This document shows positions 32,743-63,692 of a stretch of DNA of 64,000 nt, in pieces; position 1 is the stretch's first letter; every line of letters begins with the position of its first letter. A program made the translations under genes and the position numbers. Source of the DNA: Myxococcota bacterium (lineage in GTDB: Bacteria; Myxococcota_A; SURF-8); NCBI GenBank assembly GCA_965140415.1, contig OZ223209.1, positions 2,560,001 through 2,624,000 on the forward strand. The letters run 5' to 3'. The notes beneath the pieces were generated by a model. It had not been told where the DNA came from. It saw nothing but the letters and a program-made list of their open reading frames with translations, and made no database searches.

Positions 32743-32819
32743 TGGTACGCCTACCCAGATTCGAACTGGGAACCAACGGGTTCGAAGCCCGGTACTCTAT
32801 CCAGTTGAGCTATAGGCGC
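32743..32819 (-). tRNA. tRNA-Arg(UCG)
   Basis: Minus strand folds as a cloverleaf: GCGCCTA/TAGGCGT acceptor, GCTC/GAGT D-arm, CTTCGAA anticodon loop, TTCGAAT T-loop, encoded CCA. Confidence 0.95.
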
Positions 32820-32820
32820 A
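32781..32820. repeat. att core, left copy (tRNA 5' half through anticodon loop)
   Basis: TTCGAAGCCCGGTACTCTATCCAGTTGAGCTATAGGCGCA, identical to 46875-46914. Confidence 0.95.
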
Positions 32821-33064: not shown

Positions 33065-34192
33065 ATGTCCAAACCGACAAGGCACGGAAACAGATTGAGG
33101 ATAAGGTGGATGGATGAGAACGGGAAAAGGCATTATGAAAGCTTCCCCTTGGACCAGTATGATCTCGCGGCTCTCATGCTGAAGCGCCATAAACAAGCGG
33201 TAGAGGAAATCAAGATGTGTCTTTGTACCGGCAGCGTGCCTAAGAGAACCTTCAGTCAGTTGGCCGATTACTGGCTTGAAGTCTACGCGCCAACAAAACG
33301 CTCGTATCGTGACGATAAGAGCATAATCGACGCGCACCTTCGCCCCACCTTCGGTAAGATGCAGCTTTCCGACATAGGTGTCCAACACGTGGACAGATAT
33401 CGCGCTGCACGGTCCCATCTGGCGGTTAAAACCCTAAGAAATCACATCGTTTTGTTCAAGTCGATGCTGAAAAGAGCTTTTGAAATAGGGTGGCTACGAT
33501 CAGTACCACCTATCAAGCCGCCGAAAGTGCCCAAAAACGGTCAGGATTTCAACTATCTCAAATCGAAGGATGAAATCCGCAGATTCCTTGTAGCGGCTGA
33601 AGAAGAAGGACAGCTTATCTATACTCTCTACAAGACCGCTGTTTTCACGGGAATGCGCGTGGGAGAACTTACGGGTCTGCGATGGGATGATATTGATTTC
33701 GCAAGACGAATTATTACCGTTCAACGTAGTTTCAACAAGCCAACGAAGAACAGTGAGATTCGCCATGTTCCTATCGTTGATGTTTTCTTAGATGATCTGC
33801 ATAAACTGGCCTTGAATCGCCCCCATCCCATGATCGTATTTCCGAATCAGAGAAACAATATGCAGTGCCAGAAGGCGCGAGCCTTCAATGAGATTTTCCA
33901 CAGAGTTTTGAAAAGAGCCGAATTTCCGGAAGTGGAGAGAAACGGAAAGATGCGTCCATACATCCGTTTCCATGACCTACGCCATACATTTGCCAGCCAT
34001 TGGTTGATGGAAGGCGGCGATATTTTCAAGCTACAACGCATTCTGGGTCACAAGTCGCAGGAAATGACACAGCGATACGCACATCTTTCCCCGGATGCAT
34101 TTTCAAAGGATTTTGGGCTGTTTGGCGGCAGGGGAGACATGGACACAGGGAAAGTCTTGGACTTAGCAAAAACGGGGACCAACAGCAACTAA
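33065..34192 (+). CDS. Tyrosine integrase
   Basis: TGMRVGEL, PTKN, FHDLRHTFAS, LGHKS and QRYAHL (R-K-H-R-H-Y); N-terminal arm-binding-like segment. Confidence 0.95.
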   Translation: MSKPTRHGNRLRIRWMDENGKRHYESFPLDQYDLAALMLKRHKQAVEEIKMCLCTGSVPKRTFSQLADYWLEVYAPTKRSYRDDKSIIDAHLRPTFGKMQLSDIGVQHVDRYRAARSHLAVKTLRNHIVLFKSMLKRAFEIGWLRSVPPIKPPKVPKNGQDFNYLKSKDEIRRFLVAAEEEGQLIYTLYKTAVFTGMRVGELTGLRWDDIDFARRIITVQRSFNKPTKNSEIRHVPIVDVFLDDLHKLALNRPHPMIVFPNQRNNMQCQKARAFNEIFHRVLKRAEFPEVERNGKMRPYIRFHDLRHTFASHWLMEGGDIFKLQRILGHKSQEMTQRYAHLSPDAFSKDFGLFGGRGDMDTGKVLDLAKTGTNSN

Positions 34193-34230
34193 AACCGCGC
34201 AATCGATTGCGCAAGCGAAGGAGGTAAGCA

Positions 34231-34437
34231 ATGCAAATTGAAAACAGTATTTTAACGTACAAGGAAGCCAGTGAGTATCTAAACATCAAGCTCGCGACCC
34301 TTTATGGTCTCGTTCACGAGAAACGTATTCCCCATTTTCGGCTTGGGGCGCGCATGGTTCGGTTTCGCCAATCCGAATTGGATCGATGGATGGAGGAAAA
34401 GTATGTCGAAGCGAAGGCGATGGAAAGCCATGCCTGA
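34231..34437 (+). CDS. Excisionase/HTH_17 family protein
   Basis: LTYKEASEYLNIKLATLYGLV...IPHFRLG...RFRQSELDRW; RBS GGAGG. Confidence 0.9.
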   Translation: MQIENSILTYKEASEYLNIKLATLYGLVHEKRIPHFRLGARMVRFRQSELDRWMEEKYVEAKAMESHA

Positions 34438-34643: not shown

Positions 34644-35444
34644 ATGGCCAGCAGACACCTTTTAGTTCTCGGAGGAGTACAGAAACATCTGTACAAATTG
34701 ATCGAACGCTGGATAAACGGGGAGGATATCGAGTCATTCGATAAATACGAACGAAGAGCGATAACTCTCTACCAAATTGGTGAGGAGAAACAAGCAGGAA
34801 GGCTTTATGCCTGTGCGAACAATAAAGATCATCCTCTCAGTCGATTTGGTTATTACTGTCGCAACAGATTATGTCCGGGATGTGGAAGTTACATTTCCAG
34901 ACAGTATTTCTACAAGCAGCAAAAAGCTATCAAGAAAATGAGGAATCCCAAAGCAATTCTTTTCACGATCTATTCTTTTGGTATGAACGATCTCGTAGAA
35001 ACCATCGATCTCTTCAATGAGGCAAAGCGGAAGATCAGTCGACGGATAGCTTTCAAGCAAGCCGTTCGCGCCATGTCAGGTGTGATAGAGCCGAAACTAT
35101 CCGAGGATGGTCAACGATTCGCGGTCCATTCGCATGCAGCAGTGGATGTGGATGAGGACTATTTCGATATCGATGAATTGAACGCCATATGGAAGAAGTA
35201 TACCCATGGACGAGGAAAGATCGAGTTTCAGTGGGATGAGGACATTAGAGAAGGGGACGAAGAAAAATTCGCGTGGTATGGAAGCAAAGAACACACTTGG
35301 TCGCCGGAACCGAATTTTCTGAATGACGACTGGATCGAATATCTCCGGAAGGGAATCAAATCAAAACGCCTGTACTTCCATTACTCTCCAGGAAGCTCCA
35401 AAAAAAAGGGCGTGGAATTGAAGGGTGAAAGACGATGCGCTTGA
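34644..35444 (+). CDS. Rolling-circle replication initiator (Rep_1-like HUH endonuclease)
   Basis: CRNRLCPGC zinc motif, ILFTI (motif 1), VHSHAAV (HUH), AWYGSK (YxxK). Confidence 0.8.
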   Translation: MASRHLLVLGGVQKHLYKLIERWINGEDIESFDKYERRAITLYQIGEEKQAGRLYACANNKDHPLSRFGYYCRNRLCPGCGSYISRQYFYKQQKAIKKMRNPKAILFTIYSFGMNDLVETIDLFNEAKRKISRRIAFKQAVRAMSGVIEPKLSEDGQRFAVHSHAAVDVDEDYFDIDELNAIWKKYTHGRGKIEFQWDEDIREGDEEKFAWYGSKEHTWSPEPNFLNDDWIEYLRKGIKSKRLYFHYSPGSSKKKGVELKGERRCA

Positions 35445-35469
35445 CAGCAATAGTCTTTAATATTATAAT
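35441..35469 (+). promoter_or_regulatory. Perfect consensus sigma70 promoter
   Basis: TTGACA (35441-35446)-N17-TATAAT (35464-35469). Confidence 0.8.
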
Positions 35470-35539
35470 GAATACAGGTAGTTACGATATTTTGCCCTGC
35501 GCAATCGATTGCGCGGACACAACATCAAACGATGGCCAG

Positions 35540-36637
35540 ATGAAAAGGAATCCTTTCCAACTCAGCCTTTTCGATAGAAATCAAAACGACATTAGAGTTG
35601 AGAATAGCGATGGTTCAATCAGTAGGGTGAAACAAGGCTCCCGCTGTTCCTGCGGTTCGAATCAATCCTGCGAACACTTCAGGCAAGCCCGTCTCTACCT
35701 CGATATGGATCGGGGGCTTTTCTATGACGGCAAAAGCGGATTTCACAAGTCAATTCGTCTCGCGGAGGTTGAGCGCTCCCTTGCTTATGCCCGCATACTT
35801 GATCGCTACAAGAAAGGCACGGCTCGTTCCTATCTTCGAGGTATCTGGGCCGAGGAAACCAGAAATCTCGATCTTCTTGCTCGTTTCTACGATGGAACGC
35901 CAACAGAAGAACTCATTGAACTGTTCTGCCGTAGCTGTAAAGATTGGCAGTGCCCTGAAGACGTAGGGATATTTTCTCGTCGCTGGCTTGAGATTCATCT
36001 TCGTTTCGGTTGCAATCCAAGTGCTGATTGGGAAGTAAGCTATCCTTGGCCAAACGAGGAGAACATCAAGCTAACCATCGCCCAGATGATTGAGGCGGAT
36101 GATTTCGATTCGCTTCTGGAAATGGTTGTCTGTGCAACGAGTTTCGGGCCAACTTCGACTCGATATCGAAAGGCTGTCCGATTTGCGCTTGTTGAAGAAG
36201 TAATGAAGCGCGCAAAGTTGCTGAACGTCCCGCCTGTGGTCGAAAAGCTGAAGGCAACATCATATCACAGTGAGGAATTGGTGGCCCTCTGGCGCATCCT
36301 GGCGGGCAAACGGAACAGTGGGGATGACGAGTACTGTAACAAACCAGTTCAAGGTCGAGAACAAATGGATGTGCCTTTCGTTGAAGACTACGTTTTCGAT
36401 ATGCACACCCGCGAAGGTAAACGACGCCTGAGAAAAGCTGGTCATTTGCTCGCTTGGGAAAAGCCTATGGCGGCAGGAATCGACCTTCGGTATTCGGGGG
36501 CGGAGGCTGGAACTCTTTGGAGATACCTTGCATGGGAGCAACATGGGAGAATCGATGTCCCGTGGGAAGCTGTCAAACTTGATGAAGAACTTTCACTGGT
36601 ATGGAAAAGCCTCATTGGAGGGAGGTTGACGACATGA
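35540..36637 (+). CDS. Hypothetical protein: SWIM-type zinc finger plus RarA/MgsA C-terminal-like helical region
   Basis: CSCGSNQSCEH (CxC..CxH); KSGFHKSIRLAEVERSLAY resembles RarA SAxxKSIR; DYVFDMHTREG near the end. Start placed downstream of the promoter at 35441. Confidence 0.6.
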   Translation: MKRNPFQLSLFDRNQNDIRVENSDGSISRVKQGSRCSCGSNQSCEHFRQARLYLDMDRGLFYDGKSGFHKSIRLAEVERSLAYARILDRYKKGTARSYLRGIWAEETRNLDLLARFYDGTPTEELIELFCRSCKDWQCPEDVGIFSRRWLEIHLRFGCNPSADWEVSYPWPNEENIKLTIAQMIEADDFDSLLEMVVCATSFGPTSTRYRKAVRFALVEEVMKRAKLLNVPPVVEKLKATSYHSEELVALWRILAGKRNSGDDEYCNKPVQGREQMDVPFVEDYVFDMHTREGKRRLRKAGHLLAWEKPMAAGIDLRYSGAEAGTLWRYLAWEQHGRIDVPWEAVKLDEELSLVWKSLIGGRLTT

Positions 36638-37683
36638 AACCGGAACAGGCGGAAAAGCCGATACAAACCCAAAATCTGTATTCTCGGCCCCAAAAACAGG
36701 AGGCTATTCCAGACAATCTTCGCTTCCTTTGGCGGGACGGAATCATTGAAAGCGAGAGCGAAAAGGAACGTCAGGCAAACGAGGAATACCTGAAGCACTC
36801 CCATGCCGAAAGCACTCTCGAAATCTACGGATACGATTGGCGAGAGTTTCTGGCTTTCTGTTCTAAAAGCGACCCTCCCGTTGCATCGCTTCCAGCCGAA
36901 CCGGAAACGATCCTGAGCTTTCTTCGCTGTCAGGCTGAACAGAATCACAAGCCTTCAACAATCACTCGGAAACTGTCGGCCATCCGGTGCTACCATCTGG
37001 AGGCAGAAGTTGAAACGATTCCGACCGACAATCCCAAGGTCAAGCGGATGATGGCGGCGATCCGGCGATTGAAAGGCGTTATGCCGGAACAGAAGAAACC
37101 GCTAACCATTCAACGCCTGAATGCGATCATCGAGAAATGCCCCCCGACCTTGTGCGGCTGTCGGGATAAAGCCATGTTGCGGCTCGGCTTTGCCGGTGGC
37201 TTTCGCAGATCGGAACTGCTTGCCTTGCGGATGGAGGATATCGATCTTTCTGAGGTCGGGGTTGAGATTTTAATAAGACGTTCGAAAACCGATCAAGAAG
37301 GTTATGGAAGGCTGTTGTCCATACCCAGGAAGGACGTTCCCTTGACCTGTCCTGTCGCTGCATTGGAAGAATGGATCGAACGGGGAATGATCCGAGAAGG
37401 CCCCATCTTTCGACGGCTGTATAAAGGCGACAAAGTAGGCGAAACGGCGATCACGGGGCGTTCGTTCGCGAAAATCATCGACAAGTATGTGGAGCAGGTT
37501 GGACTCGATCAGGAGGACTTTAGCCCCCACGCCTTGCGCGCGGGATTTGTTACGAGCGCATACAGAAGCGGAGCCTCCATCGCTCAAATTCAGGGCGTTA
37601 CCGGACACAGAAGCGCGCAATCCGTTCATCGCTACGTTCGCGGCATCGATGGCTTTCGAGAGTACCCGAATATCGAGGAATAA
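36634..37683 (+). CDS. Second tyrosine recombinase (Cre-like, with SAM-like N-terminal domain)
   Basis: GFAGGFRRSEL, RRSKTDQEG, TCPVAAL, FSPHALRAGF, TGHRS and HRYVR motifs; ATGA coupling with the upstream gene. Confidence 0.92.
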   Translation: MKPEQAEKPIQTQNLYSRPQKQEAIPDNLRFLWRDGIIESESEKERQANEEYLKHSHAESTLEIYGYDWREFLAFCSKSDPPVASLPAEPETILSFLRCQAEQNHKPSTITRKLSAIRCYHLEAEVETIPTDNPKVKRMMAAIRRLKGVMPEQKKPLTIQRLNAIIEKCPPTLCGCRDKAMLRLGFAGGFRRSELLALRMEDIDLSEVGVEILIRRSKTDQEGYGRLLSIPRKDVPLTCPVAALEEWIERGMIREGPIFRRLYKGDKVGETAITGRSFAKIIDKYVEQVGLDQEDFSPHALRAGFVTSAYRSGASIAQIQGVTGHRSAQSVHRYVRGIDGFREYPNIEE

Positions 37684-38147
37684 TGAGCGAGGACTTTTCC
37701 CTCATTCGCCAACTGGCCGCAGAGATGGCAAGCAATCTCTTCTACGATGAAATCGAGGGGATCACCCGCTACCATGAAGAAATCGGTTGGCATCTGGCTG
37801 CGCTCTACGAGGTTCATAGGGCGGTGATGGGCTGTGAGTATCCGCTTGCAAACGAAGCAATTTTAGCTGAAGTTCGCGAACGGCTGAACGATGTTATCGA
37901 GGCAAAAAGCTACGAGGACGCGAGAGACGTCATCCTGTTGATCGATGGGGAGGAAAACATATCTGTTCTGCTTCGCTGGTTGGCTGAAACTCCGAATTTC
38001 GTATCCTTCGTGGAAGAAGCGATTGAGGATAAACTTGACGGCGACCGCCCAAGATTTTCCCGGCTTCTCTATTGGGGGAACATGCGGTTCAGGCAGGAAG
38101 TAGGACTTAGCTTGTTGGATGCGTTGCGGGGAATAAATCAGGGGTAA
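37683..38147 (+). CDS. Small acidic helical hypothetical protein
   Basis: TAATG coupling to the recombinase; about 30 D/E against 15 K/R by my count. Confidence 0.7.
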   Translation: MSEDFSLIRQLAAEMASNLFYDEIEGITRYHEEIGWHLAALYEVHRAVMGCEYPLANEAILAEVRERLNDVIEAKSYEDARDVILLIDGEENISVLLRWLAETPNFVSFVEEAIEDKLDGDRPRFSRLLYWGNMRFRQEVGLSLLDALRGINQG

Positions 38148-38328
38148 TTGGTGTACGATAGGCTCAGAGTTTACCCGAAAACAAGATCAAGGTTGCATTT
38201 AAAAGTCCCGTCATTCATTTCGCAGAAACAAAATTTATCATCATGATATTGCAGAGGAATCATTTGATATTTGTGTGTTGCTTGTTCGTAGAAAGCATAT
38301 GATGTTTGCGCCAAAATCCCAACCTGTC

Positions 38329-38784
38329 TCAAAAATCAATGTCTTCAAGTTTTAGGTCTTCTCCCCGACGCGGTAGCCATAATGGCGCAAGTTCCCATTC
38401 AGGTAATTTTGCCCCCGGAATAGCTTGAGATCGGATAATGGCCTCCAGAACACCATTTACACGCCATTCCTCCATGCGACGAGATATGGTTTGAAAAGGA
38501 GGGTAGCCCATCAAAGAGATATCTCTAAGCGACAGCTGCGTCTTTGCCCTAAGAAGGATGGCTTCTGCCATAATTCGATCTGGTACGCGAGGTCTTCCCC
38601 TTCGGCATCGTCTTTCGGGAATATGGGGCTTGATCTTGGCCCATGCTTCATCAGAAAGAATCTCTTTATGTGCAGCTTCGGGCAATTTGTATTTACCTTT
38701 GATGGTTGATGGCAACATGATTGGCTCCCTGATACAATGACGGATAACTTTCTTCATTTTAACTGGGTGTTTGGTGCACATCAA
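38329..38784 (-). CDS. IS5-family transposase N-terminal (DUF4096-like) domain without DDE core
   Basis: LSDEAWAKIKPHIP...GRPRVPDR...EAIL...YPPFQTISRRMEEWRVNGV. Start uncertain. Confidence 0.7.
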   Translation of the reverse strand: MMCTKHPVKMKKVIRHCIREPIMLPSTIKGKYKLPEAAHKEILSDEAWAKIKPHIPERRCRRGRPRVPDRIMAEAILLRAKTQLSLRDISLMGYPPFQTISRRMEEWRVNGVLEAIIRSQAIPGAKLPEWELAPLWLPRRGEDLKLEDIDF

Positions 38785-38896
38785 GGGATTCTATTAAAAG
38801 TATTCGACACGTTAGGCATGGTCTGGTAGACTCTAAGGCGGAGTGTAAAGGTCGAAATATTCGGCTGATACGTTGCTTATCGCAAAGTAGGAGACA

Positions 38897-41800
38897 ATGG
38901 GAAAGTCGTTGGAATTAAACGAGTTATTGGAAGGACTCGGTTACTTGGGGTCGGACTATTTCCTCAAGGGGGCAGAGCTTCAGCGTCACCCGGCCTACGC
39001 CCATTTTTTCCGAAAAGCCAGCGAAGACCTTCATCTTAAAGGCGTGTACTGCCTTAGAGCGAGACCTGAATGTAAAATAGATCAGGATACCGTTGTTCCT
39101 GTCGTTTATGTGGTCGAGCTAGATTCGGATGATCCTGAATCAATTCAAAAGTGGCACCGAAAGGTTTGGAATCAGAGCATCGTTCCTTTTGTTTTACTGG
39201 CCACGCCGTCAAGTTTCAGAGTGTATCGTGGCTTCAGGCATTCGGACGATATAAAAAAAGATACAGTTCTTGATGATCTTCGAGATGCCGCAGAAATACT
39301 GGAGCGTTTCAAGGATTTTTCGGCAAGGTCGATAGATTCCGGTGCAATTTGGGAGCGTATGCAGAAGCATCTTGACCTTGATGCAAGGGTTGACAACCGA
39401 CTCCTTAAAAACCTTGAAGATCTTGGCAACAAACTTATTAAGGAGCAAGGTTTAAACAGAAGGGTTGCCCACACTCTCATTGGGAAATATGTCTTCCTCA
39501 GATATTTAAGAGACCGAAAGCACCTATCGGATAAAAAGTTCCAAGATTTTGGAATCAGTCCTAATGATGTATTCGATTCCCAGGCAAAAATCAGTTCCCT
39601 GTACGAATTGGACGAAAAGCTAAACAACTGGCTCAATGGTGCAATTTTTCCTCTCCCAAAGAGAAGTGGTGAAATCAAAGAGGAGCATGTTAAGGAAGTT
39701 GCGAGAGCTTTTCGAGGGGAAAACCCTAAACACAAACAGACAGAAATGTTTGATGTATTCAATTTTGAGTACGTTCCGGTCGAAACTCTTTCCGCTGTTT
39801 ACGAGCAATTCCTTCATTTCGATGGCAAGGGGAAAGAGCAGGGTGCTTTCTATACCCCTGTCCATCTGGTCAATTTCGTTCTTGAAGAGCTTGATACTAA
39901 ACGGCCATTAAGAGACGGTATGAAAGTACTTGATCCCTCTTGTGGGTCAGGAGCTTTTCTTGTTCAATGTTACCGACTATTGATCGAACGCGAAGTACAG
40001 CCAAGCCCCGAAAAAAAGATCCTTCCCTCCAGATTGCGAGAACTACTGGAAAGGAACATCTTTGGACTGGATATTGATGGAGATGCTTGTAGTGTTACTG
40101 AATTGAGTTTGGCACTTACTTTACTTGATTATGTAGATCCGCCGGATTTGAAACGCTATCCAACCTTTAAACTGCCTGCATTACGAAACAGAAACATTTT
40201 TCATTGCGAAGGCGGTTTTTTCGATGAGTCCTCTGCCTGGAATCAATCTGAATCTGCGATAAATGGATATGATTGGATTGTTGGGAATCCCCCGTGGATA
40301 AAACTCAATTCCTCCATGAAAGGTAAAAGTGCAATATCTGCTCTGGAGTGGATGCGTGAGAAGCAGGAGGATTGCCCTACGGGTGATAATCAGATTGCAC
40401 AAGCATTTGCATGGAAAACCTCTTTGCATCTTTCACCGGAAGGTCTGGCTGGATTGGTAATGCCAGCAATGACGCTCTTTATGCCCAAGGCTAAGCGTTT
40501 CCGCCATCATTTTTTCGAGAATAATGATGTGTGGGCTATTGCCAATTTAGCAAACTTCACCTATCGGCTTTTTGCGGGTAGAGGAAGACTGCCAACAATG
40601 TTGCTGTTTTTCAACAACTCAGTTCCTGATGCAAGTGAAGAACAGTTTTTGACTGTATTTTCCCCTTTCATAGCGGAACAAGAAGCCAGTCGAGATTACA
40701 ATAATGGAGCTTGGAGCATAACAGTTGAACAAAACGCAATCAAACAAATTCCAAGAGACAAAGTAGCATCAGGCGACAGTTTGCCTTGGAAAGCTGCTAT
40801 GTGGGGGTCTTGGAGAGATTTGAATCTATTAAAAAGGATCGAAAGTCGATTCCCCTCCTTTTTAGATTTTGCTTCACAAAAAGAATTATCTATTCATCAG
40901 GGTATAGAGCTTAGAGAATGCGGCTCGTCGCAGGCAGTAGAACCAATGCCAGAATTGGCGGGTCAACCCATTATTGATATGGGAAAAATTAAGAAGAACA
41001 CTCGTAATCTATTTCATCTGCCGGATAATATACTATTTCCAATACCTCCAGAAAAAGCTAATATCAGAATTAGAGGAGGGAAAAGGGCACTCAGAACGAG
41101 TATACCACCGCATATTTTTGTTGATGCCTCACGTAATTATTCAATTTATTCAGACAGTCTTGTCCATATCCCAGCCCGCCAAATCGGAATTGCTGGACAT
41201 GATGAGAAATTACTAAAAGCACTTTCATTGTACTTGTCGTCAGATTTTGCAAAATACCATCAGTTTCTTTTCTCCGCGCAGTGGGGCATTCAAAAATCCA
41301 TTTCCAATCTTGAGACGTTACTAAAATTGCCCATACCTTTTTCCATAATCAATACATCACATATCAATTCATGGGCAAAGCTGCACAATGAATTTGTAAA
41401 AGCGTCGAAGCACATACATGGTGATTTGTTTGTCCAGAATTCATCGAAAAAGAATTATTCAGAGATATTGGATGATTTGAGGAAATCTCTGAATAATCGT
41501 GTATACGAATTGTTAGGATTGAATAACAGTGACCGTAACCTTGTTAAAGATCTCGTGAATGTTCGTATGCATCTTGTACAGGGCAAAGTGCCCAAAGCTG
41601 CAACACGGAGTGCAACCAAGTCTGAGATGGTGGAATACTGCCAGATTCTTGCAAAGGAGCTTGATGAATTTTTAGGCGTAAAGAAGCGTCATGATGTGAA
41701 TGTGTATGCAGGAACTAATAAGGCACTTTTGGTTGTGAGGAATCAGCGTGAACCTCGACCGAACGCAATAATCGATGTAACGCAGGATGAGCATTCATTC

Positions 41801-41995
41801 AATGCCGCTCTAGAAAAACTTGGAAATCTGGTTTCAAAAAGAAAGCAGTGGATGTACTTTGACAGAGGCTTACGGATATATAGCGGTGACCGCATTTGCT
41901 TGTTCAAACCGAAAAGCCGTTTGCATTGGCTTAAAAGCCAGGCGCTTCTCGATGCAGATGCAATTATTTCTGATCTCGTATCCCAGAAAGCTTGA
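38897..41995 (+). CDS. Large amino-(N6)-DNA methyltransferase (Type IIG/Eco57I-like architecture)
   Basis: GAFYTP, VLDPSCGSGAFL (motif I), FGLDID, WIVGNPPW (motif IV), long C-terminal specificity region. Confidence 0.9.
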   Translation: MGKSLELNELLEGLGYLGSDYFLKGAELQRHPAYAHFFRKASEDLHLKGVYCLRARPECKIDQDTVVPVVYVVELDSDDPESIQKWHRKVWNQSIVPFVLLATPSSFRVYRGFRHSDDIKKDTVLDDLRDAAEILERFKDFSARSIDSGAIWERMQKHLDLDARVDNRLLKNLEDLGNKLIKEQGLNRRVAHTLIGKYVFLRYLRDRKHLSDKKFQDFGISPNDVFDSQAKISSLYELDEKLNNWLNGAIFPLPKRSGEIKEEHVKEVARAFRGENPKHKQTEMFDVFNFEYVPVETLSAVYEQFLHFDGKGKEQGAFYTPVHLVNFVLEELDTKRPLRDGMKVLDPSCGSGAFLVQCYRLLIEREVQPSPEKKILPSRLRELLERNIFGLDIDGDACSVTELSLALTLLDYVDPPDLKRYPTFKLPALRNRNIFHCEGGFFDESSAWNQSESAINGYDWIVGNPPWIKLNSSMKGKSAISALEWMREKQEDCPTGDNQIAQAFAWKTSLHLSPEGLAGLVMPAMTLFMPKAKRFRHHFFENNDVWAIANLANFTYRLFAGRGRLPTMLLFFNNSVPDASEEQFLTVFSPFIAEQEASRDYNNGAWSITVEQNAIKQIPRDKVASGDSLPWKAAMWGSWRDLNLLKRIESRFPSFLDFASQKELSIHQGIELRECGSSQAVEPMPELAGQPIIDMGKIKKNTRNLFHLPDNILFPIPPEKANIRIRGGKRALRTSIPPHIFVDASRNYSIYSDSLVHIPARQIGIAGHDEKLLKALSLYLSSDFAKYHQFLFSAQWGIQKSISNLETLLKLPIPFSIINTSHINSWAKLHNEFVKASKHIHGDLFVQNSSKKNYSEILDDLRKSLNNRVYELLGLNNSDRNLVKDLVNVRMHLVQGKVPKAATRSATKSEMVEYCQILAKELDEFLGVKKRHDVNVYAGTNKALLVVRNQREPRPNAIIDVTQDEHSFNAALEKLGNLVSKRKQWMYFDRGLRIYSGDRICLFKPKSRLHWLKSQALLDADAIISDLVSQKA

Positions 41996-42687
41996 TTGAG
42001 GCCGTAACGCTTATGGCAGGTATATCCAGACACAAAATCAACCAAATCGGCAAATCTGCCCTTGCAGATGAATTTCAAACCTCTTTCCTGCGAAATGCCT
42101 TGGAATTGTTATTAATCGGCTATGAAAACCTACCAACCAGTGATAGATCGAAGTGGCAGGAGGAAGAAATTACCGGCGAACTATGCAGAGAGATTCAGGA
42201 ATATCTAGATATGCCGGATTCCCCTGGTTGGACTAGACGCTATTCGCTTCATGAAGATCCGCCTGTTCATTCATCCTACAGAAAAGGAAAGAAGCGCAGG
42301 CGAATTGATTTTCGGATTGAGGAAACCCACCGACGGCCTCGCCACAAGTTCGGAGTAGAAGCAAAAAGGCTCCGTTCCGATTCCCACAATGTTGGGAAAT
42401 ACTGCGGACAAGATGGGATGGGGTGCTTTGTTTCAGGAGAATATTCGTCTCAGCAAAATATCGGCGGAATGCTTGGCTACGTTCAAAGCGGAACAGTCGA
42501 TCAGTGGGAATCCAAGGTGGGAGCAAAGATTAAGAAAGATGCAAAAACCTTGCATGTAAGGAACGGACGAACTTGGGAAAATGCTTCCGGCGCAAACCCC
42601 ATAAATCAATGCCACCTTTCCGAGCACGATAGACCGAGTTTAAATAAACCAATACTAATTTATCATCTGATGCTGAATTTCAGCTGA
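41992..42687 (+). CDS. Putative PD-(D/E)XK nuclease-like protein
   Basis: EEEITGEL...RRIDFRI...FGVEAKRL pattern; overlaps the MTase stop. Alternative start ATG 42013. Confidence 0.6.
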   Translation: MIEAVTLMAGISRHKINQIGKSALADEFQTSFLRNALELLLIGYENLPTSDRSKWQEEEITGELCREIQEYLDMPDSPGWTRRYSLHEDPPVHSSYRKGKKRRRIDFRIEETHRRPRHKFGVEAKRLRSDSHNVGKYCGQDGMGCFVSGEYSSQQNIGGMLGYVQSGTVDQWESKVGAKIKKDAKTLHVRNGRTWENASGANPINQCHLSEHDRPSLNKPILIYHLMLNFS

Positions 42688-43090
42688 CTGAAAAACTTTC
42701 ACTTCTTCAACAACCGCCTCCCATCATCCACGGTCATCATGAGTCGCTTGGGAATTCGTTTTCCCCAGTAATAAGGTGATTCCATAGCCGATATTGCAAC
42801 CCCCTCTAAAAACATTTGCCTCAAAGTTATCATAAGTTTATACTCTTATCGTTCGATGAAATTCCCTTGCGTTCTGCCTTTTGGCTGACGGCCTGACTAC
42901 CCGTGATCGAATGCATGGCTTTGCCATTGAACGAACAAAGTGGCTCACACGACGCGCGCCTATCACGCGCCGTGCTAGTCACACGTGCGCCTCTGATGGG
43001 AGGGGCGCATGTGATGGTGTGAGCCATGTTGCATGTCGCCCCTTTCTTTTAGGGGCAGATTGACGATTCTTGAAGCAAGGCGGTGCGCAT

Positions 43091-44161
43091 ATGAAACGAA
43101 TGTTTCTTTCGATTGTTCTCGTTATTCTTCTTCTGGCATGTGGCAACGATCAGACGACAAATTCACCAGATAACACGGATGGGGACGCCCCATTGACGGA
43201 CGGAGACATGGAGGACTGCCCGCCGGGGACGCATCTCTGCCCATGCTACGGCAATGATACCTGCAATGCGGGTCTTGATTGCCGCGATAGTATTTGCGTC
43301 GAAAGCGATGATACGACGGACGGAGACGGGGAGCGTGAAGTTGATGAGCCCCTTGATTCAGATGGCGATCTGCTCCCGGATGGAGATGATACAGATGGCG
43401 ATGCTTTCGATGCCGATTTTGATGAAGACTTACTCGAAAACTCTGACGGTTCGGACGGTGATTTCGAGCTTGATATAGAGCCAGATGATGAGATCGAACT
43501 TGATGACGATTTCGAGTCTGAAAGCGATCCAGAGCTTGATGAGGAAGTATCAGACGATGAAAACGGTGTCGAATACGAGCCGGATGATGAGATGGAACCA
43601 GAAGTTGATGTAGAGATTGAAACCGAGCTTGAAGCAGAACAGGAAGAAGAACCTCCATACGAACCTATCTGGAGAGATCCTGATACTCTTTTGTATTGGC
43701 CGTTGACGCGAGATGCTGGTACTTGGTCAGAGTCCGAGCAGTATTGCGAGGATCTTGAATGGGGAGGGCATTCGGACTGGCGCTTGCCGACTGTAACTGA
43801 GTTGCGCTCGCTTATTCGAGGATGCGGTGCAGACCTTGATAGCGATTGCATGGTTTTTGAGGATGATCGTGATCTTGGAGTTAACAGCCAGTGTATCTAT
43901 GAGACTTGTGACAGCATGTATTGCGTTGGAATGCAGGAGCCGTGCGAGATTGAAGAGTGTGAGAAGTGCCCTTTTGTTTATAACCAGTGCTACTGGCCGG
44001 AGGTGTTTGGTACATGTCCATCGTCGGCAGATTATTGGTCCTCGACTGCGGAGCGATGGGGCATGGAAGAGGAACACTGGTATGTAGGGTTTAAGCATGG
44101 CTCTGTCATTTGGGGACGTGACAGTTACGTTAAGGGTGCAAGATGTGTACGCAGGAGGTGA
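43091..44161 (+). CDS. Lipoprotein with acidic linker and DUF1566-like domain
   Basis: Lipobox LLAC, D/E-rich DGD linker, YCEDLEWGGHSDWRLPTVTELRSL, YWSST and ARCVR motifs. Confidence 0.82.
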   Translation: MKRMFLSIVLVILLLACGNDQTTNSPDNTDGDAPLTDGDMEDCPPGTHLCPCYGNDTCNAGLDCRDSICVESDDTTDGDGEREVDEPLDSDGDLLPDGDDTDGDAFDADFDEDLLENSDGSDGDFELDIEPDDEIELDDDFESESDPELDEEVSDDENGVEYEPDDEMEPEVDVEIETELEAEQEEEPPYEPIWRDPDTLLYWPLTRDAGTWSESEQYCEDLEWGGHSDWRLPTVTELRSLIRGCGADLDSDCMVFEDDRDLGVNSQCIYETCDSMYCVGMQEPCEIEECEKCPFVYNQCYWPEVFGTCPSSADYWSSTAERWGMEEEHWYVGFKHGSVIWGRDSYVKGARCVRRR

Positions 44162-44304
44162 CTTCAATGCGTGTAAGTGTGAGAAGTCAGGATGCGAAAA
44201 ATGATTGAGCAATCGATTGCGTGTCTTCAAACAAGAATTCGTTCTGGACGACAGGTGCAATTGTTCGGAGATTCGATACTGGTTTAGCCTTGAAGGAGGT
44301 AGGG

Positions 44305-58385: not shown

Positions 58386-61300
58386 TTACTTGGAGAACAT
58401 GAACTGGCGACGAAGCCCGATTAGCATCAAACCGAGCATGAACAACCAAGCCGGGTTGGATGTTGTGTGCTGACAACCGCCGCCACTGCCATCATCGGTT
58501 TGATCGCCATCCACCGTGCTGTCTCCATCTGTGGACTGGTCGCCATCCGTAACGATTTCGTCTCCATCGATAATGTTGTCTCCATCAACGGTGGTATCTC
58601 CGTCAATCAGGCTGTCACCGTCCGCTATTGTATCTCCGTCTGTATGGTCGCCATCGATCGAATCGCCGTCAATGCTGTCCCCATCAATGGTATCACCATC
58701 GACAGAATCACCGTCAATGCTGTCTCCATCAACGGCATCGCCATCTACAGAATCACCGTCAATGCTATCTCCATCAACGACATCGCCATCTACAGAATCA
58801 CCATCAATGCTGTCCCCATCCGCCAGGTCACCATCGACTGGACCATCGTTTAGGGTTACAAGCAGGCTGAACTGATCCGCCGAGGCCGAAGCGGCGAGAT
58901 CGGCTGTAACTTGTAGAATTATAAATCCGTTTTCGGAGGTGGAGAAACCGATGATTTCCTGATCTCCAGAACCGCCGTTGGCGGAACCGACCAGGCATTC
59001 GCCTTCACAGCCCTGCCACAGAATCAAACCGTAAAATGCATAGTCTTCCTCCGGTTCCAAGAACGCGGAGTAGTGTTTTCCTGCCTCAAGCTCTACCTTA
59101 AGGAAAAGATCCCGATGTTCCGATGCCGTGCTGCCGGGAGCCAGGCAGGTTCCCGGAACATCCTTGAATCCATGATGCCCTGTGATACTCAGGTCCGTTT
59201 TTTCACCGACGCTTATCTCCAGTGCATTCTCGCAGCTATCCATGTCGCCCAGCACTTCGCACTGGCCACTGAAGCAGGCATAACTGTCTTCTCTGGAAGC
59301 TGTTGCACACGTCGTCCAGTCGGAAACGGGGGTGAATACACATCCCGCCGCTCCCTGACAGGCTGCGGTGAGACATTCGTTGTCATTGTCACATAACGGT
59401 TCTTGCTCGTCTTCTTCGTCTGTGTTGCCATCACAATCGTTGTCAATGTCATCACAGATTTCAGTTGCAGGTGTGCCTTCTGTGGCGTTACAGACGAGCA
59501 GCATTCCGCCTGACGAGCAGACCAGCTGCCCGGTGGCTTCACACGCGCCTGTACCGACAGTACAGGTTTGACCTGCATCGCCAAAACCTTCGTCGGTGAT
59601 GCCGTCGCAGTCGTTATCGATGGCGTCGCACAGTTCAACCGCATTGTCCGGGGATTCCTGACAGGAACGTATTCCACCTCGGGCGCAGATGTAGGTTCCT
59701 TCTTTACAGAGATCCGTATCCGCGCCATCACAAGCCAATCCGACCCAGCTTTCGTCGCTTCCATCGATCGTAATGGGATTGCAGTCGTTATCCACGCCAT
59801 CACAGGTTTCAGGAATATTAGTTTGGCTTTCCGAGCCACACTCGATTTCCAATCCGTTGGCGGCACACTGATATTCTCCATTGGCACACAGGTCCGTGTC
59901 GGGACCGTCACAGGCACTATGAAGCAGCGGGAAGATTTCATCCGTTTCATCATCGCAATCGTTGTCGATGCCGTCACAAAGTTCTCGTGCGCCATGGAAG
60001 ATATCCGAGTTGTTGGGCGCACAATCGCTATAGTCCGGGTCGCCGTCGTCGTCACTGTCAACCGGCGGCTGATCCGAAACGTGCAATGTGGCTGGGATCA
60101 TGCTGGTCGGGTTTTCCAGATCGCTACTGGTTACGCGAATATAACCCTGGTGTTCACCCAACGCAAAGCCTTGACCGTTTGCCGTGACCTCTACAGCATG
60201 TTGCCCTGATGGTGCAACTATGCCGCTGCCATCGGTGATCGTCAGCCAACTGGTGGCGGTGGCAATGGCGATGGAAAGATCATCGTGCATGAAACTCTGG
60301 CCTGTATGAGACAGGCTCATGCCACTGGTCGAATTTGCGTTTTGAATGCCGATGTTGGCGTTTGTGCCTTGGGCGGATTGATAGTTGATGTGGATATCGC
60401 CGGTTGAATACAGCACGAATTGGAAGGTGTAGCTATTAGTGCTGTACCAGCCATATTCCGGCACGTTATTGAAAGTAACCACGAATGCGCCATCCACGCT
60501 ACCATAATAAACGGAACCACCGCTGCCGGGGTCCAAATCGTCGTATAGAGCCGCGATGACCGGGCGGGGTTCATCCGAATCGGGGAACGTGATGGCAGAA
60601 CCGGATCTGTCGTCGAAACCATTTCCGAAGGTCAGATAACCATTGCTGCCGATATAAAGCGTTTGATACGAGTGCCCATAGAACGAAAAGGCGAATGGGA
60701 TCGACGCGGAAGAGTAGTCATCATCATCGAGATTTACACTACGTCGTGCTTGGGCGGGAATCTCCAACCATTGAACGGGAGTTTCTCCGTAATCCGAGCT
60801 CCCCCAACGGTAGCCGTAACTGTCATTTCCTCGTCCATAGCCAGTAGAGGTTTGGAATTCCAGGGGTTTGTCTCCGGTATTTGAAATCAGCACCTGACGA
60901 GCGTTTGTCGGTTGTGAAGATGTTACGTAAAAATGCAGTTGCTCAGGTGTGATAAGCGCTTCCGGGCATCCTAATTCGAAGTTCTTTTCGGTGTTTAGCG
61001 GGATGGAAATCATAGCGGTTTCGGACAAATACGAAGGGTGGGTTACGGTCAGGTCGTAGCGGCCAGCATCCAACCCATGGATGAGGTAATAGCCGTTGGC
61101 ATCGGCTTCAACCGAACCGTTCATCACACCGGAATAGCTGACGGTCGCTCCACTTATGGCTTGCCCGTTAGAAAGGCGAGTTATGTGACCGGACAGCGCA
61201 TTGCCCACCGTAAAGCTGAACTGTTCGCTCCACGAATCCTCATCGGAAGTGATATTAAGTGAAAAGTCCACACGATGATTGTTGTCGCAGGCGTTGATCT

Positions 61301-63692
61301 GCACGAGGAAAGGCTGTCCGCCATCCGATTGTTCACCGGAGGCAAGATCGCCAAAGGAAAGCTGGCTACGAGTAATACTGACACAGGTGTCATCTGCAAC
61401 CAGGGTGGCCGTTACGTTGTGAGTGTCTTCATTTCCAAAGTTTTTAAGTATCGTAGACAAGGTCAGTACTTCGCCGGGACTTGGCAGACCGTTGCCGTTA
61501 CCATTGGCTTCACCGGTTGTGCTGTCATCCCACTGTTTTTCCAGCAGTCCAATGTAAGCGCCATCCGGTGGTATGACCACCAGTGAATTGATATAGGGAT
61601 TCAGATTGTGACCGGTAATGACCACATTCAACTCGCCCGGAGTCAACAGACCTGCAAGCGATAAAGTCACTTCGCCTTGTACATCCGTGTAGGCGGTGGT
61701 TCTGAGCTGATCGTCTTTTGAAATTGCAACCAGGGCATTTTTTACAGGTTGTCCGCTGATCGATACGGTCAATGTGATTTGGCTTTGACCGATGACGATG
61801 GCACTCGGACCGGCGAGATCTATTGTTCTGGGATTTTTCGTCCAGATGTCCACGGAAGGATCACCCAGTAAGTTATATTCCTCGATCGCGTACTGTACGC
61901 TCCAGCTACTTGGGGCACGTTCGTAGAACAGTTGTAGCGACATGTCGGTGGCTGCACCCAAGGTCGTGTAACCATCGCTTGTATCCCAGGGGTAATTTGC
62001 CATCTGGGGATCGTCCGTGCGGCTGCGCAGCGAAGGCAGGAAGGCGGCCCATATCGCTTTTTCGATCAAATCATCTTCGTCCCAAAGCGAGTTGTTACTC
62101 GCTGCCCAGGAAGCGACCGCACCACCCGGCGATTTAAGCCAGGCTTCACTGAAGCAGTCGCCCTGGCTGTTGTATTGGAACTGACCGGTCTGGCAGGCAT
62201 TCGTAATGGTGAAGGGATAGGCACCGGTGTCGGTCAAGCCCATTATGAAATCGTTATCGACCGGCACGCAGGCCCAACCGCTGTGAGAACCATGGCCGGA
62301 ATAGTTGATGATCGACTGTCCGGCCTGAATGGCAGCTTTAGCTGTCGACTCGGCAGCGCTTTCTCCTACTTCGGCTTTGTAGGCGGTTGTGTGAGTCATG
62401 CCCTCGGTAAGGAATCCCGGTTTAACCCATTCATGTGTGACTTGACCCATGGCGTCGTGATCATCGGAGGCAACCCATAAACTATTGGTGTACCAGGATG
62501 AACTCGGGGCCGTCGGCTTTTCGTGAGCCAGGATCTTATTGACAACCACTGCCAGTTCTGTTGCGTTATGAACCGAAAGGCGACCTACGTGGAAATCCGG
62601 CACCTGATCGGCAGTGTAATTGCTGTCGGAAGCATCCATGGTGGCGTAATACATATCCGCTGCCTGTTCATCGCCGTCGCCGGTTCCTTCCCAATACGGA
62701 ATATGTTCGACGTCACCTACCAACGCGAGATAAGCAGGAGCGCCCATTTCGGAAGACGGATTGGTATAAAGATCCCGCAACGCAGCTTTGATCTGTTCTT
62801 TGCTGCTTCCGGTCTGGCTGGTGTACAGTGTCGTTACCTGGAATCCTTTCTGGATTTTCCAGTCGATCAGGGGTTGTAAGGTAGAGAGAAAATTTACGCC
62901 GGAACTATGATCCGGGACAACAAAAACATAATGAATCGGAGCGTTTGGCAAGGCGTCTTTGGTGTCCAGTAAGTTTGAAACACCCATGATCATGGCATCG
63001 CCTACCTGCCGCAAGCCCGGCAGGGTGCGTCGCAAAACCTGCCGTGTGCGTTGCCATTCCGGTTCTGCCGTTGTCAGTGTCGCTTGGATACTGCGGTATA
63101 CGATTAATTGACCATTTTCGGCATCATACACAACGGGGGAAAATTCCACGATGGCATGGCGGATTCCACGAAATGTCTCTACTGCCAGAATACGCGCCCT
63201 GACCGACTCTCCGATTAGCCCTTGATACGTATCGGCATCGAATGAAAAATCACGGTTTTCCCATGCTTCAGGAACTTTCAACATAGGGGGCTGCATGGGG
63301 TACAGAGGAGCAGACAATGGGAGATAAAATGGATTCTTCCCGGTTGCAGTAATACTTACATTCTTGCCCTGCGGAACGGCGATGCGCCGCCGCATAACCG
63401 GTAAAGCTGGCGAACCGACTTCGCCGGTGGACGCTCCTCCCGTAATTTCAGCAGACGTAAACAGCCCCGCTTCGGTTTCAATATTTTCCAGCCACAACCC
63501 GGATGTCGCCAGGCTTACATCCATTGAGCCGTTATCTTTCAATTCCGCAAGCTGAGTCACACTACCTTGTGTGGAATCGACTGCTTTTTCGAAAGGAGTC
63601 CATTGTGTTTGCGCAAAAGCAGGTATCGATAAAATCAGGAAAAAGATCAGTGGGAGAATCAGCTTTTGGTGAAAATGGAGAGTGCTGCTCAT
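58386..63692 (-). CDS. Gingipain-like C25 cysteine peptidase, multidomain surface protein with MYXO-CTERM-like tail
   Basis: Signal peptide, propeptide (GSPALP), LVGD, YSGHG and NACQTG (His/Cys dyad), YNLLGDP, MopE-type ExCDGIDNDC repeats, DGD repeats, GGGC...WL...GLRR terminus. Confidence 0.9.
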   Translation of the reverse strand: MSSTLHFHQKLILPLIFFLILSIPAFAQTQWTPFEKAVDSTQGSVTQLAELKDNGSMDVSLATSGLWLENIETEAGLFTSAEITGGASTGEVGSPALPVMRRRIAVPQGKNVSITATGKNPFYLPLSAPLYPMQPPMLKVPEAWENRDFSFDADTYQGLIGESVRARILAVETFRGIRHAIVEFSPVVYDAENGQLIVYRSIQATLTTAEPEWQRTRQVLRRTLPGLRQVGDAMIMGVSNLLDTKDALPNAPIHYVFVVPDHSSGVNFLSTLQPLIDWKIQKGFQVTTLYTSQTGSSKEQIKAALRDLYTNPSSEMGAPAYLALVGDVEHIPYWEGTGDGDEQAADMYYATMDASDSNYTADQVPDFHVGRLSVHNATELAVVVNKILAHEKPTAPSSSWYTNSLWVASDDHDAMGQVTHEWVKPGFLTEGMTHTTAYKAEVGESAAESTAKAAIQAGQSIINYSGHGSHSGWACVPVDNDFIMGLTDTGAYPFTITNACQTGQFQYNSQGDCFSEAWLKSPGGAVASWAASNNSLWDEDDLIEKAIWAAFLPSLRSRTDDPQMANYPWDTSDGYTTLGAATDMSLQLFYERAPSSWSVQYAIEEYNLLGDPSVDIWTKNPRTIDLAGPSAIVIGQSQITLTVSISGQPVKNALVAISKDDQLRTTAYTDVQGEVTLSLAGLLTPGELNVVITGHNLNPYINSLVVIPPDGAYIGLLEKQWDDSTTGEANGNGNGLPSPGEVLTLSTILKNFGNEDTHNVTATLVADDTCVSITRSQLSFGDLASGEQSDGGQPFLVQINACDNNHRVDFSLNITSDEDSWSEQFSFTVGNALSGHITRLSNGQAISGATVSYSGVMNGSVEADANGYYLIHGLDAGRYDLTVTHPSYLSETAMISIPLNTEKNFELGCPEALITPEQLHFYVTSSQPTNARQVLISNTGDKPLEFQTSTGYGRGNDSYGYRWGSSDYGETPVQWLEIPAQARRSVNLDDDDYSSASIPFAFSFYGHSYQTLYIGSNGYLTFGNGFDDRSGSAITFPDSDEPRPVIAALYDDLDPGSGGSVYYGSVDGAFVVTFNNVPEYGWYSTNSYTFQFVLYSTGDIHINYQSAQGTNANIGIQNANSTSGMSLSHTGQSFMHDDLSIAIATATSWLTITDGSGIVAPSGQHAVEVTANGQGFALGEHQGYIRVTSSDLENPTSMIPATLHVSDQPPVDSDDDGDPDYSDCAPNNSDIFHGARELCDGIDNDCDDETDEIFPLLHSACDGPDTDLCANGEYQCAANGLEIECGSESQTNIPETCDGVDNDCNPITIDGSDESWVGLACDGADTDLCKEGTYICARGGIRSCQESPDNAVELCDAIDNDCDGITDEGFGDAGQTCTVGTGACEATGQLVCSSGGMLLVCNATEGTPATEICDDIDNDCDGNTDEEDEQEPLCDNDNECLTAACQGAAGCVFTPVSDWTTCATASREDSYACFSGQCEVLGDMDSCENALEISVGEKTDLSITGHHGFKDVPGTCLAPGSTASEHRDLFLKVELEAGKHYSAFLEPEEDYAFYGLILWQGCEGECLVGSANGGSGDQEIIGFSTSENGFIILQVTADLAASASADQFSLLVTLNDGPVDGDLADGDSIDGDSVDGDVVDGDSIDGDSVDGDAVDGDSIDGDSVDGDTIDGDSIDGDSIDGDHTDGDTIADGDSLIDGDTTVDGDNIIDGDEIVTDGDQSTDGDSTVDGDQTDDGSGGGCQHTTSNPAWLFMLGLMLIGLRRQFMFSK
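58490..58838 (-). repeat. In-frame 15/18-bp tandem repeat encoding DGDxx units
   Basis: DGDSI/DGDSV/DGDVV/DGDAV/DGDTI run near the C-terminus of the C25 peptidase. Confidence 0.85.

Follow-up and report, generated by a model that had tools for sequence, protein, structure and literature searches.

We analysed a stretch of 64,000 nucleotides from the genome of a Myxococcota bacterium (GTDB lineage Bacteria; Myxococcota_A; SURF-8), positions 2,560,001 to 2,624,000 of contig OZ223209.1 in assembly GCA_965140415.1. The whole 64-kb stretch is referred to as the window, and positions are counted from its first letter. Inside an integrated element of 14.1 kb, three plus-strand genes, here called g1, g2 and g3, directly follow the gene for a Rep-like protein:

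35540-36637, plus strand: g1, 365 amino acids (aa)
36634-37683, plus strand: g2, 349 aa
37683-38147, plus strand: g3, 154 aa

A coupled three-gene unit behind a consensus promoter

The three genes are joined by overlapping codons. The stop codon of g1 (TGA, 36635-36637) overlaps the ATG of g2 (36634) as ATGA, with GGAGGGAGG 8 nt upstream, and the stop codon of g2 (TAA, 37681-37683) overlaps the ATG of g3 (37683) as TAATG, with GAGG upstream. The G+C content at the first codon position (GC1) exceeds that at the second (GC2) in all three genes, as in real coding frames. For g1, the best start is the ATG at 35540 and not the one at 35435 given in the list of open reading frames (ORFs), because a gene starting at 35435 would begin ahead of the -10 box and the relatives of g1 align from 35540.

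Ahead of g1 on the plus strand lie TTGACA (35441-35446) and TATAAT (35464-35469), separated by a 17-nt spacer; the -35 box overlaps the stop codon of the Rep-like gene. The exact TTGACA-N17-TATAAT sequence occurs once in the window and in 0 of 100 shuffled versions, and a promoter scan returned 35441-35469 as the sole 12/12 site. Promoter-like sites as a class are not enriched in the window (15, against 17.8 ± 4.4 in shuffles). We infer that 35441-35469 is a putative sigma-70-type promoter driving g1-g3. It is followed, in the g1 leader, by a perfect 16-bp palindrome, GCGCAATCGATTGCGC (35499-35514), which with its flanks forms a 19-bp site (35498-35516) and is probably an operator or another protein-binding site. 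An earlier note on this DNA had described the perfect promoter, the palindrome and the ATGA and TAATG junctions, all of which we confirmed in place, and had proposed the trio as a new system. As described below, the trio is not a recurring system; its novel component is the predicted g1 family.

g1 is a predicted RarA-C-terminal-like protein without an ATPase

The g1 protein begins with a putative zinc finger of the SWIM-like type (C36-x-C38-x5-C44-x-H46), followed by a helical domain resembling the C-terminal domain of RarA/MgsA (residues ~57-145), a second helical bundle (~166-258) and a conserved C-terminal region (260-362) whose conserved residues include D287, H289, D315, R317, W327 and R328. 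The RarA-like domain carries the segment K65-S-G-F-H-K-S-I-R73. Both the CxC..CxH finger and the KSxxHKSIR segment had been picked out by the earlier note, which read g1 as similar to the C-terminal region of RarA/MgsA and as lacking an AAA+ domain; a profile search, a profile-profile comparison and two structure searches lend this reading concordant, if individually modest, support. No family in Pfam, NCBIfam, PHROGs or PADLOC matched g1. Scans of Pfam, NCBIfam and PHROGs turned up no AAA family either, and g1 shows no ATPase domain.

To delimit the family, we collected seven close relatives (25-56% identity) and searched a 13-sequence profile against 1.84 billion cluster representatives, which returned 303 clusters at E ≤ 0.001, 234 at 1e-10 and 155 at 1e-30. 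Of the 150 members listed, nearly all are stand-alone proteins of 300-476 aa, the exceptions being a handful of short fragments. Across 130 family sequences, S66, H69, K70, R73, Y98, E105, E106, K134 and W136 are invariant or nearly so, as are D287, H289, G293, D315, R317, G320, W327, R328 and W342 towards the C-terminus, and the finger is complete in 85. None of the 42 members scanned reached a Pfam cut-off; two gave sub-threshold matches to SWIM (PF04434; E 0.012 and 0.041) and one matched the C-terminal end of AAA_assoc_2 (the RarA lid). Like the SWIM zinc finger, g1 has C-x-C-x5-C-x-H at a helix start after short beta strands. Its spacer is nevertheless short: SWIM is defined by 6-25 residues, whereas the g1 family has 4-5 (5 in g1), and the Pfam model is silent on g1. 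A tblastn search of 72,556 plasmid records gave no match to g1. Full-text searches of the literature returned no printed description of the family, which is not proof of absence. The g1 family is thus a novel component as predicted from its profiles, comprising ~300 clusters with a SWIM-like finger and a RarA-C-terminal-like domain but no ATPase.

The likeness to RarA emerged from four independent results, each modest or below a conventional threshold. The top two sequence matches of the g1 profile in PDB were E. coli MgsA (E 0.2) and an H. influenzae C-terminal fragment (E 0.5), both falling on the HK..R motif. Alignment by hhalign to 20 RarA C-termini from related genomes gave a probability of 72.7% (E 3.2e-5, 55 columns). 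For a first AlphaFold model of g1, with a predicted local distance difference test (pLDDT) score of 70, the best five of 48,161 chains searched were five RarA/MgsA C-terminal structures (3pvs, 3bge, 2r9g, 8g28 and 2qw6; Z 6.2-7.1). A second model, built on a 130-row alignment (pLDDT 92, predicted template modelling score 0.90), shows a zinc finger and then all-helical domains; the same five RarA/MgsA C-terminal structures were the only chains at Z ≥ 5 (Z 5.3-6.6, root-mean-square deviation 2.0-3.0 Å, 72-88 residues aligned, model residues ~57-145). Residues 166-257 are weakly similar to clamp-loader collar domains (2gno, Z 4.9; a Rad24-RFC subunit, Z 4.2). In the BFVD database, the matches included a viral protein whose fold is similar overall (E 5.8e-6, template modelling scores 0.53/0.66; the one such protein) and an Orpheovirus protein named RarA (E 0.014).

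Two features, the S..HK..R motif and an acidic EE(T)/SED helix, are common to g1 and the C-terminal domain of RarA/MgsA (WRNIP1/Mgs1). The g1 protein differs in lacking the AAA+ ATPase and P-loop, and g1 alone has the SWIM-like finger in front and the regions 166-258 and 260-362. We therefore label the modelled protein RarA-C-terminal-like and do not class it as RarA, because the ATPase is absent, Pfam MgsA_C (PF12002) gives no match to g1 at E ≤ 0.01, and a normal RarA is encoded at another place in the genome: searched genome-wide, PF12002 matched only this true RarA, at 4.84 Mb.

g2 is a predicted Xer/Cre-like tyrosine recombinase

Scanning g2 against Pfam gave Phage_integrase (PF00589) at 72.4 bits (cut-off 27.1) and SAM_1 at 23.9 bits. 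An alignment of 44 sequences shows no variation at R191, K218, H299, R302, H325 and Y334, and we take these R-K-H-R-H-Y residues to have the canonical catalytic roles, in agreement with the full catalytic set ascribed to g2 in the earlier note. The closest solved structures are XerD (4e-13) and Cre (~1e-4). Scores against the XerC/XerD equivalogs remain below their cut-offs (TIGR02225, 91.8 vs 329.6 bits; TIGR02224, 84.8 vs 335.15), as do those against the FimB/FimE-like invertases (NF007371, 26.5 vs 222 bits; NF007370, 23.2 vs 221). That g2 is distinct from the integrase of the element, as had also been proposed, is supported by an identity of 23% over 154 aa between the two.

The g2 family is very large, with at least 6774 clusters at E ≤ 1e-30 among 8000 candidates scored. 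Its best relatives are 40-45% identical, ~320 aa long and named 'site-specific integrase' or 'XerD' at source. Matches at E ≤ 1e-20 were found in 1313 plasmid records, including plasmids of 4.6 kb and 9 kb. Three of these plasmids were opened: the g2 relative stood alone on the 4.6-kb plasmid by toxin-antitoxin genes, by a PIN/AbrB pair on another, and two genes 3' of a ParA/ribbon-helix-helix partition pair on the third. Recombinases for multimer resolution usually sit alone by partition or toxin-antitoxin genes on small plasmids, and XerC/XerD, P1 Cre and F ResD-type recombinases resolve multimers. Like these, g2 is a two-domain protein of Xer/Cre architecture with a complete set of catalytic residues, but it is not an XerC/XerD orthologue and is coupled to two unrelated genes. 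From its domains and relatives, g2 is a predicted Xer/Cre-like tyrosine recombinase of the ordinary plasmid or mobile-element type. Prediction of a g2-g1 complex (44- and 130-row alignments) gave a score of 0.00, a 'no answer' that is evidence for neither side.

On Methylobacterium plasmid pD (3220-5154 of the locus read), a g2 relative is coupled to an upstream DUF3102 gene and a downstream 78-aa ORF, an arrangement that echoes the three-gene layout of the window with unrelated partners.

g3 is a putative lineage-specific orphan

The g3 protein is acidic, as the earlier note had it, with an isoelectric point (pI) of 4.5 and 30 D+E against 15 K+R residues. No family in Pfam, NCBIfam, PHROGs or PADLOC matched it, and a word-indexed search of 5.8 billion proteins returned g3 itself only. 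When 400 other genomes from the phylum were searched in all six frames, two matches emerged at E 0.007-0.009, both in large unrelated ORFs and taken as chance. By these searches g3 is a predicted lineage-specific acidic orphan, and a conserved partnership of g3 can therefore not be judged.

The three genes do not travel together

To determine whether the trio recurs, we read 22 loci carrying g1 relatives from the ~300 clusters, 20 of them distinct (L002/L003 and L035/L036 are near-duplicates). They comprise 8 genome or metagenome contigs, 5 other genomes of the phylum and 10 viral contigs, one of the ten being the contig of L008. Within the phylum, g1 relatives occur in 6 of 401 genomes, that of the window included. 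By tblastn, a g2-like gene was present in one of the 22 loci (L001, 37% identity) and a g3-like gene in none; in five loci (L002, L003, L006, L007 and L024) the sequence downstream of g1 is shorter than 0.5 kb, too little for a judgement. Even in L001 the two genes are non-adjacent, lying 1.7 kb apart with a 578-aa opposite-strand ORF between them. Close g1 relatives have neighbours that encode large serine recombinases, GmrSD and AAA proteins and a Fic protein, among unannotated genes. With g2-like and g3-like genes at 1/22 and 0/22 loci and g3 without a homologue, the trio is not co-located in the loci read, an outcome that the earlier note had itself named as refuting its proposal, and the view of the trio as a new, recurring system is unsupported.

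Viral contigs gave a more regular picture. A phrog_17202-type gene lies upstream of the g1 relative in all 9 distinct viral loci, and further upstream are genes for a Cas4-like exonuclease (7/9), a RuvC-like resolvase (6/9) and a UvsX-like recombinase (5/9). The gene order in seven of the nine reads UvsX-like (present in 5), Holliday-junction resolvase, Cas4-like (in 7), RuvC-like (in 6), phrog_17202, one or two small genes and the g1 relative. Distant g1 relatives are thus fixed members of phage recombination modules (UvsX/RecA-like, Cas4-like, RuvC-like) in 7/9 viral loci, whereas the window has neither those partners nor a phrog_17202-type gene. The pair of phrog_17202 and the g1 family is a reproducible phage gene pair without an assigned function. 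In the other two viral loci (L034, 1726-7262; L035, 3868-12688), the g1 relative lies among genes encoding WbqC-like, glycosyltransferase, ParB-like, aminotransferase and radical-SAM proteins, which may be a sugar or DNA-modification cluster.

Three further observations concern these loci. In carriers of the row (L037, L038, L040, L042, L043, L008/L041 and L039), a small ORF and then an ORF of ~181 aa with a weak helix-turn-helix (HTH) signal precede the g1-family gene. A link between phrog_17202 and DUF3102 was considered and dropped: it had been prompted by one sub-threshold DUF3102 match of a phrog_17202-type protein (E 0.008) and by the DUF3102 gene ahead of the g2 relative on plasmid pD, and the hhalign probability was only 2.7%. 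In a genome of the same family, a g1 relative of 219 aa (L026, 6882-7541) retains the C-terminal half only. Its neighbours encode an IS630-type transposase, a Fic protein and two recombinases, one a tyrosine and the other a large serine recombinase, so it has the look of a copy decaying within a different mobile region.

The trio belongs to an integrated Int-Xis-Rep element

The element is bounded by perfect 40-bp direct repeats, one of which covers half of a tRNA gene, and contains the following features besides the trio:

32743-32819, minus strand: tRNA-Arg(tcg)
32781-32820: attL, 40-bp direct repeat over the 5' half of tRNA-Arg(tcg)
33065-34192, plus strand: element integrase (int), from a Pfam scan
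34231-34437, plus strand: excisionase-like HTH_17/AlpA protein (xis), from a Pfam scan
34644-35444, plus strand: Rep_1-type HUH replication protein (Rep) with an IS91-like zinc ribbon, from a Pfam scan
38329-38784, minus strand: insertion sequence (IS) remnant, DUF4096 only
38897-41995: Type IIG restriction-methylase, 1032 aa
46875-46914: attR, identical 40-bp repeat

An HSH motif is present in the Rep translation. Public runs were covered as contigs from two DNA-type sets of one study; in the contigs of one run, the element is a single 14,114-bp piece between the repeats without alternative joints. Int, Xis and a rolling-circle-replication Rep form the core of the pSAM2-type integrative elements of actinomycetes, and like these the element of the window is tRNA-flanked and has an integrase, an excisionase and a Rep_1-type Rep. 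Unlike them, it shows no transfer genes and its repeat is a tRNA 5' half. Its cargo differs as well, consisting of the trio, the Type IIG restriction-modification gene and Lcl_C and Sel1 proteins.

A second exact copy of the palindrome lies at 34197-34212 (19-mer 34195-34213), within the 38 nt that separate the stop codon of int from the start of xis. These two are the only exact copies in the 5.98-Mb genome, where ~0.001 copies of a random 16-mer would be expected by our own arithmetic. The two 19-mers are exact reverse complements, 1284 nt apart, and enclose xis, rep and the consensus promoter. A copy with two mismatches (44207-44222) lies ahead of the Sel1-repeat gene, and allowing up to two mismatches raises the number of sites in the genome to 8, compared with 1 for a reversed control. 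In viral contigs the palindrome had 21 single occurrences, none beside relatives of element proteins, which by our own estimate is about the number expected by chance. The palindrome was also considered as a possible RNA hairpin; folding of the three palindrome-bearing leaders gave z-scores of -1.58, 0.12 and 0.88, with no sign of unusual RNA structure beyond the hairpin itself. As the palindrome recurs once more, just ahead of xis, one DNA-binding protein probably governs both excision and the g1-g3 operon, and the sites including the Sel1 copy may constitute an element-wide regulon. The palindrome common to xis and the operon would then be a clean example of such a small regulon.

To see whether related elements carry the trio, we examined four cousin Rep genes: a second copy in the same genome, two in a same-family genome and one in a same-order genome. 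Within the 18-kb regions around them, tblastn re-found Rep in three, one of which keeps the xis-rep pair; g1, g2 and g3 were found in 0 of the 4, and Lcl_C cargo in 2. The cousin elements thus lack the trio, which indicates that it is an accessory block of this particular element.

A proposed accessory operon for resolution and recombination

We propose that g1-g3 form a coupled accessory operon peculiar to this 14.1-kb element, combining a resolvase with an accessory protein of replication or recombination. This composite reading is held tentatively, its probability falling just short of even. The excised circle would be replicated by Rep, and its multimers would need resolving. Because of its family and its setting in a Rep-encoding element, g2 would most likely resolve these multimers or perform another recombination step on the circle. 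The C-terminal domain of RarA makes the RarA tetramer, and RarA binds the single-stranded-DNA-binding protein SSB. Given these traits, and because its phage relatives sit inside UvsX/exonuclease/RuvC modules, g1 would be an oligomeric accessory factor on replication or recombination intermediates, possibly acting through SSB-coated single-stranded DNA. The consensus promoter would drive g1-g3, and a palindrome-binding protein would control the operon together with excision.

Several points weigh against this proposal. Rep scores only marginally above the cut-off of PF01446 (34.6 bits vs 33.2), so that replication of the excised form is itself conjectural. Neither multimers nor an excised circle were observed in the contigs of one run, and no dif-, lox- or rfsF-like site or other g2 target site was identified. 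A visible Shine-Dalgarno sequence is absent from g1. As to the function of g1, its closest relatives (35-38% identity) have mixed, mostly unannotated neighbourhoods that are not recombination modules, and the phage-context members are distant (25-28% identity, except L034 at 35%). The likeness to RarA covers ~80 residues at Z 6-7, a score that may reflect a common helical arrangement, and to the silence of MgsA_C must be added the divided outcome of the structural comparison suggested in the earlier note: RarA C-termini headed the search of 48,161 chains, whereas Foldseek against PDB returned nothing at E ≤ 0.001 for either g1 model. The palindrome could equally be a Rep-related hairpin instead of an operator, because two cousin rep genes carry a hairpin 50-130 nt downstream.

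One alternative is that raised at the outset: the trio would be new and complete in itself, three proteins that serve to control recombination, to resolve or to counter defence, with g1 and g3 dedicated to g2 as its partners. The ATGA and TAATG overlaps behind a single promoter speak for it, as do the g1 and g2 relatives lying 1.7 kb apart in L001. Since the g2 family is so common, however, one nearby g2-like copy in a mobile context is to be expected; 21 of the 22 loci have no g2-like gene (with 5 of the 22 too short downstream), g3 has no homologue, the cousin elements lack the trio and no PADLOC model matches, so that we consider this system extremely improbable. Its defence aspect had a further form, in which g1 and/or g3 act in defence or counter-defence, g3 for instance as an acidic DNA-mimic anti-restriction protein shielding the element when it enters a cell, with g2 unrelated. 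That g3 is small and acidic (pI 4.5), that some g1 relatives adjoin Fic, GmrSD and AAA genes, and that the element carries a Type IIG restriction-modification gene would fit. Against this, acidity alone is weak, PHROG families gave no match and PADLOC-DB 2.0 none at E ≤ 1 for g1, g2 or g3, contrary to the counter-defence role that had been suggested, and the genes that consistently accompany g1 relatives belong to recombination and not to defence. A defence role accordingly receives little probability.

Two other explanations assign a different task to g2. If it were a DNA invertase, the 19-bp sites (34195-34213 and 35498-35516) would bound an invertible 1284-bp segment containing xis, rep and the promoter. 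The sites are exact reverse complements with the promoter just inside one boundary, and two models of tyrosine-type invertases match g2 weakly (E 4e-6 and 4.5e-5). These matches are nonetheless far under the cut-off (26.5 vs 222 bits) and Xer models score g2 much better; the three extra matching bases would arise by accident about 1 time in 30 (our own arithmetic); a symmetric spacer confers no directionality; and known tyrosine-recombinase core sites are longer than a 16-bp palindrome with 6-7-bp arms. The assembly also passes through both sites unbroken and shows no alternative joint, though rare variants could escape contigs. We regard an invertase as very improbable, and just as slim is the chance of the element phase switch that it would provide, a flip disconnecting the promoter from g1-g3 and aiming it against int. 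The trio might, on the other hand, stem from a second mobile element that inserted into the first, as its remnant or its cargo, with g2 as the integrase of that element for a different attachment site and g1 and g3 as passengers. Cousin int-xis-rep elements lack the trio, the IS remnant and the low-G+C Type IIG gene come directly after it, and in other genomes the neighbours of g1 relatives include large serine recombinases, an IS630 transposase and a further tyrosine recombinase. A search around 35445-38800 revealed no second pair of flanking repeats, however, the palindrome common with xis ties the control region of the operon to the host element, and the G+C content of g1-g3 is like that of the element core and host, unlike the restriction-modification block. 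A nested second element is therefore unlikely, if by no means far-fetched.

The accessory operon proposed here can be extended to the g1 family as a whole, which might be a widespread ATPase-less offshoot of RarA serving phages and small replicating elements as a mediator of recombination or replication; this broader idea is decidedly doubtful. In such a scheme, g1 would oligomerise via the RarA-like domain while the zinc finger docks on SSB-coated or branched DNA, and would pass the substrate to the enzyme of the element, namely UvsX/RuvC in phages and the coupled Xer/Cre-like recombinase here. If true, multimer resolution would be coupled to rolling-circle replication, and the palindrome would make excision and this machinery one regulon. 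As a new system the trio matters little, being a one-off of a common recombinase, an orphan and a rare gene. The mechanism of RarA in replication-fork rescue is still debated, and a natural ATPase-less RarA-like protein fixed in phage recombination modules would be a handle on the role of that domain itself.

Other features of the element and the window

The 40-bp repeat of the element corresponds to the 5' half of tRNA-Arg(tcg) and not to the usual 3' end. In the contigs of one run, the depth of the element piece is 44, against 37.8 and 27.6 for its flanks; contigs alone are insufficient to interpret this difference. The second Rep-like gene of the same genome (G000:C1:4481848-4482405; 8738-9433 of locus L094) is 35% identical and has a hairpin with 28-nt arms ~50 nt downstream; no integrase, xis or trio relatives were detected within 8 kb of it.

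Downstream of the trio, a 231-aa ORF of no known family overlaps the Type IIG gene. The block formed by the IS remnant, the Type IIG gene and this ORF (38329-42687) has 40-43% G+C against 46-53% around it, which gives it the appearance of separately acquired defence cargo. Genes for an Lcl_C protein, a Sel1 protein and a 261-aa ORF complete the element past the 231-aa ORF. Proteins with an Lcl_C domain are encoded in the window (43070-44161) and also a few kb from Rep-like genes in two other genomes (L095, 5358-7817; L097, 13425-15668), and they may be a shared surface or adhesin-type cargo of such elements. Elsewhere in the window, a 1768-aa ORF on the minus strand (58386-63692) contains at least 12 tandem 15-nt units (58508-58827), which translate in frame to a short aspartate-rich peptide repeat of the protein.

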